From: Alphaproteobacteria bacterium | GTDB lineage: Bacteria; Pseudomonadota; Alphaproteobacteria; GM7ARS4; G965262615 | Direction: 5' to 3' | DNA length: 64,000 nt | Assembly: GCA_965262615.1 (NCBI GenBank) | Contig: OZ253545.1 | Coordinates: 832,001-896,000 of the forward strand | In this document: one piece after another, positions 32,754 to 59,749 of the stretch | How positions within the stretch are numbered: the first letter of the stretch is position 1 | How the letters are laid out: every line of letters begins with the position of its first letter | Made by a program: the position numbers and the translations under genes | The notes under the pieces: generated by a model | Databases searched by the model: none | The model's input: the letters and a program-made list of their open reading frames with translations, nothing else | Told to the model about the DNA's origin: nothing

Positions 32754-33148
32754 TTATTGGCATTGGCATGGATCGCATTGCCACGCACCGCATTGCCCGC
32801 GCGCTTGACAGATTTGATGAGCGCATGAAGGCGCGTCTGTTCACCAATGATGAGCGCGCCCTGTGTGACAGTCGGAATCTGTGCGCGGCGTGTTATGCCA
32901 AGCGATTTGCGGCAAAGGAGGCGGCATCAAAGGCGTTGGGAACCGGTATGAGAGGCGGCGTGCGTTGGCGTGATATAGAGGTGGTGCGACTGGCAAGCGG
33001 TCAGCCATTACTGTGCTTGCATGGCGCGGCATACAATCGCTTGCAATCCCTTGTGCCTCAAGGCTACACGGCACAAGCTCACCTTACGATTACTGATGAT
33101 GACGAAACCGCGATGGCTTTTGTCGTGCTGGAAGCGGTGAAAATTTAG
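32750..33148 (+). CDS. acpS: Holo-ACP synthase
   Basis: IIGIGMD, RFAAKEAASKALGTG, W.DIEV. Confidence 0.96.
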   Translation: MIIGIGMDRIATHRIARALDRFDERMKARLFTNDERALCDSRNLCAACYAKRFAAKEAASKALGTGMRGGVRWRDIEVVRLASGQPLLCLHGAAYNRLQSLVPQGYTAQAHLTITDDDETAMAFVVLEAVKI

Positions 33149-33450
33149 GATTCTATGTTAGAGCCAGCAATAAAGCCCAGTGCCAAAGTGACAATGGAAG
33201 AGAGAGCAAAAATGGCAGAGCGTATATTTTCGCCATCAACAAGGCATTCAGACCCCGTATAGGTGGAATAGAAACTAGATGCCGCAGAAATGAAAGCAAG
33301 AAACACGATGGCAATAATGCTATATTTTATTGCCCAGCTTGCCGTTTTTAGCCTAAAAAACTTCCTTTCATGGGAACGTTGCTCACCAACCATTTTAACA
33401 GTTTCTTTTCCCAGCTTCTTAGGTGTATTGACTTGTTGCTCTTCGTTCAT
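33145..33450 (-). CDS. Small two-TM membrane protein, candidate toxin of a Panacea TA pair
   Basis: 101 aa, two hydrophobic segments; ATGA overlap with the upstream Panacea gene. Confidence 0.65.
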   Translation of the reverse strand: MNEEQQVNTPKKLGKETVKMVGEQRSHERKFFRLKTASWAIKYSIIAIVFLAFISAASSFYSTYTGSECLVDGENIRSAIFALSSIVTLALGFIAGSNIES

Positions 33451-33926
33451 GAGCTTGCTGCTTGCTTAAATTCATCAACGATAGATTCGTGAGTTATAAT
33501 AAATTTTTCACCTTTTTCGTGCGCCTTGCTCCAAGCACCATCTTTTTTGTGTGTGATATCAACAAGATCAAAGGCTGTCATGTGTCCGTATTTATTGAAG
33601 ACATCGTCAATGACTTGACTGCCCATCTTAAAATCATCACCAAAAACATAGGGGTGTTGGTCGCCAGAAAAAGTACATGCCTCTGTTATGAAGCCATCAC
33701 CGAATCTCTTAAATTCATAATAAACCTCTTCAATGACGGGTCCATACGCCCACGCTTGAAATGACACATCGGAAATCTTTTTGCCGTCAGATTTCGCCGC
33801 GTAATGTCCGTAACACAGGTAGAGAAGTTTTTGCAACTTTATGTGAGTCACCTTGATTGTGCGGCGCGATGCCTCAAACAAGACGGAATTGACAAAAGAA
33901 ACAACCTCTTTTTTGTTCAGTGACAT
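33447..33926 (-). CDS. Panacea (DUF4065/SocA/GepA) domain antitoxin-like protein
   Basis: KLQKLLYLC, FQAWAYGPV..VY, DLVDITH..GAW; AAGGAGAGG RBS. Confidence 0.9.
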   Translation of the reverse strand: MSLNKKEVVSFVNSVLFEASRRTIKVTHIKLQKLLYLCYGHYAAKSDGKKISDVSFQAWAYGPVIEEVYYEFKRFGDGFITEACTFSGDQHPYVFGDDFKMGSQVIDDVFNKYGHMTAFDLVDITHKKDGAWSKAHEKGEKFIITHESIVDEFKQAASS

Positions 33927-33958
33927 GAAACCTCTCCTTTCGTCTTACGGATGCCTCT

Positions 33959-33988
33959 CTTATATCATATAAGCAATTTTTGCGTCAA
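33959..33988 (-). promoter_or_regulatory. Putative sigma70 promoter of the Panacea operon
   Basis: TTGACG (33988-33983), 18-bp spacer, TG-A-TATAAG. Confidence 0.5.
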
Positions 33989-34019
33989 TAACAGACAGAA
34001 AGATGAGCTTAATTATCTA

Positions 34020-34040
34020 CTGGAAGCCGTGAAAGAATAA
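34020..34040 (+). repeat. Second copy of the acpS 3' end (LEAVKE*)
   Basis: ctggaagccgtgaaagaataa versus acpS ctggaagcggtgaaaatttag. Confidence 0.75.
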
Positions 34041-34053
34041 AATAACTGACTTT

Positions 34054-34133
34054 GTGTCGGGCTTCTCGCCGAATACAAAACCGTCAGGAAATAAGCGAGA
34101 GCCCTCGTCTGTGGCTTGTGCAAAGCCCGATAC
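34054..34133. repeat. Structured inverted-repeat element, copy A
   Basis: gtgtcgggctt...aagcccgatac termini; internal gcttctcgc/gcgagagc stem. Confidence 0.88.
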
Positions 34134-34136
34134 TTC

Positions 34137-34166
34137 TTGTCAGTGATGCGTGGAATTTGGTATAAC
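34137..34166 (+). promoter_or_regulatory. Putative sigma70 promoter
   Basis: TTGTCA, 18-bp spacer, extended TGG-TATAAC. Confidence 0.6.
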
Positions 34167-34170
34167 TGTC

Positions 34171-34357
34171 CTTACACAGCTTACATGCAGGCTCGACTTT
34201 TAGGGTTTTTACTCTAGGTCGGGCTTCTCACTGAATACAATACTGACTCGCAATTTTATTGTGAGAAGGGAATAGGTGGGAGCCTTACCTGCGTGTGGCT
34301 TGTGTAAAGCCCGACACCTTATGGGTGTCTCACCAAAACACGCAAGGAGGTAACGCT
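34171..34357 (+). ncRNA. Putative structured leader/riboregulator containing element copy B (34218-34317)
   Basis: Mutually exclusive pairings among 34171-34197, 34218-34226, 34285-34315 and the SD region 34338-34353. Confidence 0.55.
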
Positions 34358-34534
34358 ATGAACAAGACGCTTTTGATGAGTGTTTTTGGCGCGTTCCTTT
34401 TGACATCCCCTGTTTCATCACACGATGTTGCCGCATGGTCGTCTTTCACGAGTGACCATGTCGCGCACAGTGGCGGAACGGATCGCAAGGGGTGTCATTG
34501 GGATCGCAAGAAGGATGTCTATCACTGCCACTAA
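34358..34534 (+). CDS. 58-aa secreted His/Cys-rich protein, YHYH-like family
   Basis: AAGGAGG RBS; signal peptide; HSGGTDRKGCHWDRKKDVYHCH. Confidence 0.8.
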   Translation: MNKTLLMSVFGAFLLTSPVSSHDVAAWSSFTSDHVAHSGGTDRKGCHWDRKKDVYHCH

Positions 34535-34543
34535 AAACACGCG

Positions 34544-34574
34544 CCCTCTTCCTCGCGTGATGCGAGGGGGAGGG
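34544..34574 (+). terminator. Strong hairpin after the YHYH-like gene, probable terminator
   Basis: ccctcttcctcgc-gtgat-gcgagggggaggg; U-tract is weak. Confidence 0.55.
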
Positions 34575-34590
34575 TTGTGTCATGATTTCT

Positions 34591-34625
34591 TGGCTTTTGT
34601 TGTGCTGGAAGCCGTGAGAGAATAG
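34591..34625 (+). repeat. Third copy of the acpS 3' end (AFVVLEAVRE*)
   Basis: tggcttttgttgtgctggaagccgtgaga versus 33114-33142 tggcttttgtcgtgctggaagcggtgaaa. Confidence 0.9.
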
Positions 34626-34637
34626 AACATCTGTTTT

Positions 34638-34720
34638 GTGTCGGGCTTCTCGCCGAATACAAGACCATAAGGAAATAAGCGAGAGCCTTACCTGTGTGTG
34701 GCTTGTGTAAAGCCCGACAC
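34638..34720. repeat. Structured inverted-repeat element, copy C
   Basis: Perfect 11-bp terminal IR gtgtcgggctt/aagcccgacac; left half like copy A, right half like copy B. Confidence 0.9.
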
Positions 34721-34731
34721 CTATGGGTGCG

Positions 34732-35142
34732 TCATGATTTCTTCTTGGCAGACGACTTCTTTTTGCTGTTCCATGTGGTGAGAACGGCGGGCAGAATCAT
34801 GCCGAGCAATAACACATAAAACGCCGCCAAGCCCGAGCCGTAAGGGGCGAGCATCATCAGCACCACTATCCAGACCGCCGCCACGCCAAACCATTGGGGT
34901 TGCAATCGTTTGTGCCAGATGATGCCGCAGCTCACCACGGCATAATAAGTCACCATCACCGTCAAGGACATCCACGCGGCAAAGGAATGACTCGCCTTAA
35001 CGCCGTCATAAAGGCTCACAACAATTGACATGCCAACAATTAAGGTGACCGCCGCCGCGCCCAAAGCCACATAGATGAGATAAAAGCCGATGGCTTCCAA
35101 CAAATTGCGCCGTGTGCGCCAATCAAACGGTTTGCGAAACAT
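34732..35142 (-). CDS. Hypothetical membrane protein, about 4 TMs
   Basis: 136-aa hydrophobic ORF translationally coupled to the acyl-CoA dehydrogenase stop. Confidence 0.65.
   Translation of the reverse strand: MFRKPFDWRTRRNLLEAIGFYLIYVALGAAAVTLIVGMSIVVSLYDGVKASHSFAAWMSLTVMVTYYAVVSCGIIWHKRLQPQWFGVAAVWIVVLMMLAPYGSGLAAFYVLLLGMILPAVLTTWNSKKKSSAKKKS

Positions 35143-59662: not shown

Positions 59663-59749
<87 letters not shown>

Follow-up and report, generated by a model that had tools for sequence, protein, structure and literature searches.

The small RNA sRNA-Xcc1 (RF02221) is filed in Rfam as a stand-alone small RNA (sRNA) gene and was reportedly called trans-acting by Chen et al. 2011. It is described as an 88-nucleotide (nt) RNA with mapped ends and a single Northern band in Xanthomonas (PMC2996969), as five tandem copies about 381 nt apart with detected transcripts in Xylella (PMC12189769), and as an element upstream of symE, in the same orientation, in Xanthomonas cassettes (bioRxiv 10.1101/2025.06.18.660453); in an APSE phage it is placed upstream of an open reading frame (ORF). 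No statement of self-targeting by sRNA-Xcc1 was found in the literature searched. Here we describe a related element in a 64,000-nt window of an alphaproteobacterial genome (contig OZ253545.1, positions 832,001 to 896,000), in which a leader of about 185 nt, running from about 34172 to the ATG at 34358, precedes a small gene coding for a protein with a YHYH domain. Positions are those of the window unless they are assigned to a genome.

The second point of comparison is the c4 RNA of phages P1 and P7, whose a' and b' sequences are complementary also to the upstream boxes a1 and b1; IsrK and the CI RNA of phage P4 are named beside it as akin systems. The c4 RNA is described as having three stems, as being released by RNase P, which cuts a longer precursor at the 5' end of P1, and as pairing with its target through its loops, of which b' occludes the ribosome-binding site (PMC5320573); a c4-a1b1 motif is listed in PMC2864571. 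Group 1 C4-like sRNAs of Acinetobacter baumannii likewise occur as many chromosomal copies with a common scaffold and variable specificity loops and are apparently processed from longer transcripts, but they are described as sRNAs rather than as leaders of an adjoining gene and match the Rfam C4 model (PMC5320573), whereas the family described here matches Xcc1 and not C4. More generally, mutually exclusive helices set access to the Shine-Dalgarno sequence (SD) in translational riboswitches and RNA thermometers. The present leader differs from these in that its predicted anti-SD is gene-specific and forms part of the variable loop of a scaffold that is both conserved and mobile, with no evident ligand or temperature sensor.

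An earlier sequence-only reading of 34137-34357 had proposed an RNA switch of the anti-SD/anti-anti-SD type and overlooked that the element is one copy (copy B) of a repeated structured RNA family. In the genome searched, a single contig of 1,542,258 base pairs (bp), an iterated nhmmer profile (E <= 1e-3) found 22 copies, often in tandem at a spacing of 157-275 nt. Three of these (copies A, B, and C; Table 1) lie within 700 nt on the plus strand of the window, and copy B is set apart from A and C by a 19-nt insertion. Model R1, which was built solely from the copies of this genome, found 22 copies here and one to six copies in 11 of 100 other genomes. The latter comprised 97 genomes, one per family of the same class, and 3 of the same order, in which no copies were found.

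Comparison with Rfam placed the family close to sRNA-Xcc1. Copies A and C could be aligned to RF02221 along its full 87 positions and have the unpaired AAUACAA and GGAAAU strands in common with it; the 16 places that RF02221 gave at E <= 1 across the genome all coincided with copies. Conversely, R1 recovered 25 of 30 canonical or near-threshold Xcc1 loci that lie in other genomes of this phylum, with every match spanning the full model. This reciprocal recognition indicated that the family is a divergent branch of the sRNA-Xcc1 kind, though not a member at Rfam's own threshold, since all 22 copies fell below the gathering cut-off of 53 bits (best, 41.2), which RF02221 exceeded in 24 of 151 sampled genomes of the phylum. 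Copy B gave no Rfam match at E <= 10, probably because of the 19-nt insertion in its P2. At the gathering threshold, Rfam 15 reported from the whole window only a tRNA gene (59663-59746) and no riboswitch class, and a permissive scan of the locus returned only RF02221 and one chance-level match, again with no riboswitch class. The sequence-only reading, which did not recognize the sequence family, is to be corrected here, as the family can be recognized as a divergent relative of sRNA-Xcc1. The element was also weighed as a hammerhead or other small ribozyme and as an integron attC site; these identities were rejected, as the core strings do not fit and no Rfam match was found.

The core of the family is a three-way junction RNA with strong covariation. 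The structure tested consisted of P1, P2, a 2-bp distal P2 stem, and P3. In alignment A1 (18 full-length copies of this genome), 93.3% of the cells could pair, versus 29-55% when the partners were slid by one to three columns, and both sides had changed in 12 of 21 pairs, a count attained by none of 500 shuffles; each measure of the fold was reached by at most 1 of the 500. RNAalifold on the same alignment found P1 and P2, with double compensatory changes in 9 of 15 pairs. For 48 distinct copies from this and 11 other genomes, pairing was 93.4% and both sides had changed in 17 of 21 pairs (0 of 500 shuffles), in an alignment that was fitted to the model and so leans towards it. Covariation among homologs, whose absence the earlier reading had named as one possible refutation, is present in this fold. 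G-U pairs were many, occurring at three positions, for example, in 17, 18, and 20 of the 48 sequences; since a G-U pair is an A-C mismatch on the opposite strand, the structure belongs to the transcript of this strand and not to duplex DNA.

What is constant across the copies is P1, P2 with its invariant internal loop, and the base of P3, and what varies is the P3 loop and J3/1. Invariant single-stranded blocks (GAAUACAA and GGAAAUAG-type) stand between the covarying helices of A1, the invariant unpaired nucleotides being A17-A23 and G32-A38 in its first sequence. The junction and its unpaired AAUACAA...GGAAAU strands in P2 are those of sRNA-Xcc1, and the likeness extends to the multicopy tandem habit of the Xylella array and to the same-strand position upstream of a gene seen in the symE cassettes and the APSE phage. 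The copies here differ from sRNA-Xcc1 in that they usually carry a 5' extension of 25-50 nt, the first bases of which are predicted to mask the variable segment.

The position of the copies relative to genes is regular. An SD and a start codon follow on the same strand, within about 35-50 nt, behind 13 of the 22 copies of this genome and, when most of the copies in the relatives are counted in, within about 20-65 nt; opposed orientation at a start was found for none of the 22. Seven of the 13 gene-linked copies precede ORFs of 58-172 codons, coding for the YHYH protein, four lipobox-like proteins, an SNase-like protein with a signal-like N terminus (PF00565, 19.9 bits, just below the cut-off of 21), and a DUF6804 membrane protein; both the lipobox-like LxxC of the four and the signal peptide of the YHYH protein were read from the sequence only. 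The remaining six precede only short frames within tandem arrays, and those of the array at 1464244-1464904 of the genome repeat, in truncated form, the beginning of the SNase-like gene with which this array closes. Three such tandem arrays of this genome, G000 1464244-1464904 (L018:245-905), 1392370-1392826, and 570659-570952, each run from a leader through a frame of about 16-17 codons to the next copy. Downstream genes in the other genomes code for SNase again, an outer-membrane barrel, GmrSD_C-like secreted proteins, lipoproteins, a helix-turn-helix (HTH) regulator, and small phage-like proteins.

The variable part of the RNA was then compared with the sequences around it. The variable segment was set by model columns (P3 plus J3/1), and duplex energies were computed per copy against two targets, the 50 nt before P1 and the region from -35 to +6 around the start codon, with the same regions of unrelated copies as controls. 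For 31 copies with hand-checked starts, in 23 paralogue groups, the cognate sum for segment and start region was -395.6 kcal/mol versus -285.9 ± 14.7 when permuted, and that for segment and upstream 50 nt was -498.1 versus -297.1 ± 18.4, neither being attained in 20,000 permutations. Groups with z < -2 numbered 10 of 23 at the start region and 14 of 23 upstream. A first pass with flanks of 80 and 110 nt had the upstream cognate beating every unrelated control in 22 of 48 copies; its downstream signal was weak (mean group z, -0.65), because targets as long as 110 nt add noise.

Individual loci display the same correspondence. At L041, the segment has an 18-bp perfect match to the region just before the start, and at L018, three paralogues carry mask and segment sequences that differ from one another and yet remain mutually complementary. 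Between the tandem paralogues L028 and L043, two positions have changed in the segment, in the downstream box, and in the upstream box (-65 to -80), with pairing kept. These two belong, with L037, to three tandem units 994 nt apart in genome G017 (749745-751809), in each of which an Xcc1-type leader stands with a 104-amino-acid (aa) ORF that belongs to no known family; from unit to unit, the loop of the leader has co-varied with the upstream box and the start region. Judged by these comparisons, the variable part is best described as a predicted locus-specific antisense "address." The three-partner layout proposed for copy B by the sequence-only reading thus recurs in other copies of this and other genomes, its partners changing together by locus.

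In canonical sRNA-Xcc1 members, too, the variable segment is complementary to the start region that follows the same copy. In a bona fide set of 30 loci collected with RF02221 (24 over the cut-off and 6 at 44-53 bits), 28 had a recognizable start, and the segment fitted the start region with a sum of -513.2 versus -343.3 ± 15.2 kcal/mol (0 of 20,000 permutations; z < -2 in 12 of 28 and z > 0 in 2 of 28). In the typical member, J3/1 matches the stretch immediately ahead of the SD, and the P3 loop the interval from the SD to the ATG. The 50 nt upstream gave no cognate signal in this set (2,352 of 20,000 permutations). Therefore, self-targeting is common to the whole kind, and it is the 5' mask that distinguishes the variant found here. 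In this variant, a -10-like hexamer, taken from a best-hexamer search, ends 0-12 nt before the mask in 17 of 24 strong-mask copies and 4-6 nt before it in 13 of 24, with 5 nt in copy B, in counts made without a shuffle control; this spacing suggests that transcripts would begin with the mask.

Copy B follows the pattern closely. Its segment fitted its own upstream 50 nt at -29.2 kcal/mol (z, -4.48) and its own start region at -22.0 kcal/mol (z, -2.62), and none of 30 unrelated controls did as well in either case. The parts involved are the 5' segment CTTACACAGCTTACATGCAGG (34171-34191), the anti-SD stretch TTACCTGCGTGT (34285-34296) inside the variable segment, and the start-region strings ACACGC (34338-34343), AAGGAGG (34344-34350), and AGGTAA (34348-34353). 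A sequence check found every string and pairing quoted by the earlier reading in its place, and an inverted repeat (34218-34231/34302-34315) was recovered mechanically. The proposed promoter, TTGTCA-18-TATAAC, fared less evenly: the strings are there, and the 5-nt gap between TATAAC and the upstream box is of the length seen most often in the family, but a strict scan does not list a promoter at 34137-34166, because the second hexamer ends in C and not in T.

Folding of copy B returned two states. The leader RNA from 34173 (203 nt) folded at -69.5 kcal/mol, versus -51.8 ± 4.0 for 200 dinucleotide shuffles, none of which did as well (z, -4.48). The minimum-free-energy fold leaves the SD free and pairs 34173-34191 with 34288-34309. 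When the anti-SD helix (34285-34296 with 34338-34353) was forced, the energy was -69.0 kcal/mol, a cost of 0.5 kcal/mol, and this SD-masked state adds a third helix in which 34189-34197 lies on the 5' strand of P1, a pairing seen for copy B only. When the RNA starts at P1 (34218), the best fold is the SD-masked one, at -51.8 kcal/mol. P2 with its invariant loop is present in every predicted state. Thus, thermodynamic folding reproduced the mutually exclusive helices of the sequence-only reading as two near-isoenergetic states, and both the z of the leader fold and the comparison of the cognate duplexes with the 30 unrelated controls place these pairings beyond chance. The anti-SD/anti-anti-SD interpretation of that reading is supported by comparison, not by experiment. 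A hairpin competing for the 3' strand of P1 was examined as a general terminator or anti-P1 element and rejected (z < -2 in 7 and z > 0 in 15 of 47 copies); the cognate test on that strand was not significant for copy B (z, -0.32), so this hairpin stays outside the model of copy B.

Taken together, these results lead us to read the region as the 5' leader of the YHYH-domain gene, built around copy B, an RNA of the Xcc1 kind with a c4-like a1b1/a'b'/a2b2 switch, to which we assign a probability of roughly 65%. Since the variable loop is complementary to the beginning of its own transcript as well as to the ribosome-binding site of its own gene, the leader would probably switch translation of that gene on and off, much as phage P1 c4 RNA does. 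A transcript from 34137-34166 would start with the mask. With the address (34281-34306) paired to the first 20 nt (34172-34191), the SD would be free. With the address paired to 34338-34353, the SD would be covered and translation should be blocked, 34189-34197 then holding the 5' strand of P1. Were the mask absent or displaced, the leader would be expected to repress its own gene. One possible trigger is cleavage at 34217/34218, the 5' end of P1, by analogy with RNase P on c4; in copies B and C, P1 is followed by ACC, a tail of the kind expected when RNase P acts on a tRNA-like substrate. Another is competition in trans from extra copies, such as the stand-alone copy C. Copy B shares with c4 and IsrK the three stems, the three-partner layout, and a predicted antisense over the ribosome-binding site of the downstream gene. 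It differs from them in that the gene codes for a tiny YHYH-domain protein with predicted export, not an antirepressor, and in its chromosomal, multicopy setting outside a phage immunity region. What is new, as judged from the comparisons, is the predicted combination of an Xcc1-type scaffold with c4-type three-partner logic.

Several observations weigh against this reading. The address logic is not universal: z was above 0 for 3 of 23 groups at the start region and for 5 of 23 in the 50-nt mask window (in one of the latter, the mask lies further upstream). The duplex energies ignore competing intramolecular structure, and alignment A3, from which the segment columns were taken, is model-fitted with paralogues that are not independent. 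Forcing the canonical P1, P2, and P3 in the full leader of copy B gave -57.4 versus -69.5 kcal/mol, 12 kcal/mol worse, although P1 covaries, and the SD pairing of copy B is broken by a 4-nt bulge. An RCC tail behind P1 is present in only 4 of 22 copies of this genome, versus 17 of 26 in the relatives. The covariance models of C4 (RF01695) and IsrK (RF01394) matched no copy at E <= 10, the strict scan listed neither a promoter nor a terminator in 33900-34800, and the scheme gives the invariant P2 loop no role. Finally, no RNA run is among the runs holding 33950-34800, the four holders being DNA-type contigs of one study, and the source organism seems to be uncultured.

Copies A and C have no ORF behind them and no upstream mask (cognate z, +0.35 and +0.58), and they have in common a 29-nt block upstream (34020-34048 in A and 34605-34633 in C). 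The segment of copy C differs from that of copy B by one base. It fitted the start region of B at -21.8 kcal/mol, where the segment of B reached -22.0 and all segments averaged -12.9 ± 3.7, and the mask of B at -26.4 kcal/mol, whereas copy A fitted the B start region poorly (-13.2 kcal/mol). For three of nine stand-alone copies (C, g828040, and g1392370), the best target was the start region of the adjacent gene-linked copy.

Copy C also varies among strains. Metagenome contigs from all four runs of one study hold an allele that skips 34599-34753 or 34599-34762 and so has no copy C; there, 34598 is followed, after 6 or 15 other letters, by 34754 or 34763, and the left direct repeat (34573-34598) supplies the end of the convergent membrane-protein gene. 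This presence/absence polymorphism, together with the bracketing repeat, indicated that the copy C unit was gained or lost as DNA. No contig differences were listed in 33950-34422 in two runs, and the other two runs differed only at 34423 or beyond, so that none fell in the 470 nt before 34423, leader included. Seven substitutions distinguish strains in the 3' half of the YHYH gene (34423, 34480, 34483, 34492, 34512, 34513, and 34515), and these may reflect diversifying change or recombination.

Part of this evidence would also fit an independent trans-acting sRNA gene, as sRNA-Xcc1 is catalogued, with the real targets elsewhere and the position before the small ORF incidental. The discrete 88-nt Xanthomonas RNA, with the mapped ends and single Northern band described in PMC2996969, is what such a gene would yield; copies A and C and seven others have no ORF behind them, copy C fits the start region of B nearly as well as B does, and three stand-alone copies are best matched to a neighbouring gene-linked copy. 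We nevertheless consider this explanation unlikely, because a same-strand SD and start stand within about 20-65 nt behind 13 of the 22 copies and most of those in relatives, the variable segment fits its own start region far better than those of others, and no terminator-like site separates core B from the ORF in the strict scan. It also merges in part with the leader switch, as an RNA released by processing could serve both in cis, on the message it came from, and in trans. A quite unlikely explanation, in our judgment, is a riboswitch or protein-binding leader in which a ligand or protein on the invariant P2 internal loop, rather than antisense pairing, decides between the folds. No known class matched in Rfam, the genes behind the copies are of mixed kinds (lipoproteins, nuclease-like secreted proteins, an outer-membrane barrel, an HTH regulator, and small phage-like proteins), and locus-specific antisense accounts for the variable parts, which a ligand switch does not need. 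On its side are the invariant unpaired nucleotides within a covarying junction, the location of the element in leaders, the two near-isoenergetic states of copy B, the retention of P2 in all predicted states, as expected of a constant sensor domain, and, in some copies (7 of 47 with z < -2), a hairpin that competes for the 3' strand of P1 and is followed by U-rich sequence. Such sensing could also be a trigger layered on the antisense switch and would then be no true rival to it.

Highly improbable, finally, is a DNA-level repeat, either REP/MITE-like (repetitive extragenic palindrome or miniature inverted-repeat transposable element) or a cassette-type recombination site, whose inverted termini merely mimic an RNA fold. 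The multicopy and often tandem arrangement at 157-275 nt, the presence or absence of the copy C unit between 19-nt direct repeats, and the published occurrences of sRNA-Xcc1 in integron cassettes, a genomic island, and phages would agree with it. The frequent G-U pairs leave A-C mismatches on the other strand, however; every gene-linked copy has the same orientation as the gene that follows, conservation is seen in loops and junction strands, and covariation takes in the start region of that gene. Moreover, the unit could move as DNA and still function as RNA.

The features of the locus are collected in Table 1. The downstream gene was identified as YHYH-like by the sequence-only reading, and the 58-aa product indeed matches YHYH_alt (NF033223) at 37 bits against a cut-off of 30; Pfam gave no match to it. 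A G+C-rich hairpin, CCCTCTTCCTCGC...GCGAGGGGGAGGG, lies directly 3' of the small ORF at 34544-34577; it has no U-run and was not called a terminator. The locus is otherwise surrounded by housekeeping genes and a Panacea-domain pair. This pair lies at 33148-33926 on the minus strand. One gene codes for a protein of 159 aa in which a SocA_Panacea antitoxin domain was recognized (PF13274, 68 bits); the other, overlapping it by a few bases, codes for a 101-aa protein with a hydrophobic segment and only faint SLATT-like matches (E, 0.02-0.05). Inserted between acpS and the RNA copies, the two may form a Panacea-type toxin-antitoxin pair. The AcpS protein itself had matches of only about 45-50% identity, scattered over many phyla, which gave no taxonomic placement.

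Table 1. Coordinates of the features at the YHYH leader locus and its flanking RNA copies (window positions)
Feature	Position	Strand	Remarks
Copy A	core 34056-34131; whole 34020-34131	+	R1 74.2 bits; RF02221 37.6 bits
Putative sigma-70-type promoter of copy B	TTGTCA 34137-34142, 18-nt spacer, TATAAC 34161-34166	+	sequence reading
Upstream masking box (a1b1-like, "anti-anti-SD")	34172-34191	+	predicted transcript 5' end
AGGCTCGAC, alternative partner of P1 5' strand	34189-34197	+	pairs with 34218-34226 in the SD-masked state
Copy B core, Xcc1-type three-way junction	34218-34315	+	best R1 match, 92.4 bits
Copy B P1	34218-34226 (GTCGGGCTT) / 34307-34315 (AAGCCCGAC)	+	covarying closing stem
Copy B P2	34227-34232 / 34275-34280	+	
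Conserved P2 loop strands of copy B	GAATACAA 34233-34240, GGGAATAG 34268-34275	+	
Copy-specific inserted hairpin in copy B P2	34248-34265	+	
Copy B P3	34281-34284 / 34297-34300	+	
Variable segment (P3 + J3/1; a'b'-like)	34281-34306	+	model columns 121-169 of alignment A3
Small 3' hairpin GACACC/GGTGTC	34313-34329	+	3 nt in common with P1 3' strand; ACC follows P1
Target box over the SD (a2b2-like)	34338-34353	+	ACACGC, AAGG, AGGTAA
58-codon gene; small protein with N-terminal signal-like segment and C-terminal YHYH_alt domain	34358-34534	+	
19-nt direct repeat, left copy	34573-34591	+	brackets copy C unit
Copy C unit	34599-34753, core 34640-34718	+	R1 82.1 bits; RF02221 41.2 bits
19-nt direct repeat, right copy	34725-34743		3' end of convergent gene 34735-35142

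For sRNA-Xcc1, which has been in Rfam since 2012 and whose role is poorly understood, these results propose a testable function, namely, that a copy is addressed to the start region of the adjoining gene. This would bear on a range that takes in plant pathogens, integron cassettes, phages, and many uncultured bacteria, in which such elements are currently overlooked or annotated as free-standing sRNAs. The variant with the 5' mask would recreate the three-partner logic of c4 on another scaffold, and the genes it precedes are ordinary chromosomal ones that code for exported proteins. One RNA design, present in 22 copies in 1.54 Mb, would then control a sizeable share of the surface and secreted accessory genes of this organism. 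Such a design, in which the scaffold is constant and the address can be swapped, may also be simple enough to interest builders of synthetic translational regulators. A wider and rather doubtful extension, which we put forward tentatively, is that the whole sRNA-Xcc1 kind is a portable, programmable self-repressor, with a constant scaffold and an exchangeable address for the ribosome-binding site of each cargo gene. The present lineage would have gained the upstream mask and with it a three-partner switch, and the invariant P2 loop would dock a single factor, be it RNase P, another protein, or a small ligand, by which all copies are flipped at once, making a regulon of about a dozen exported-protein genes in a genome of 1.5 Mb.

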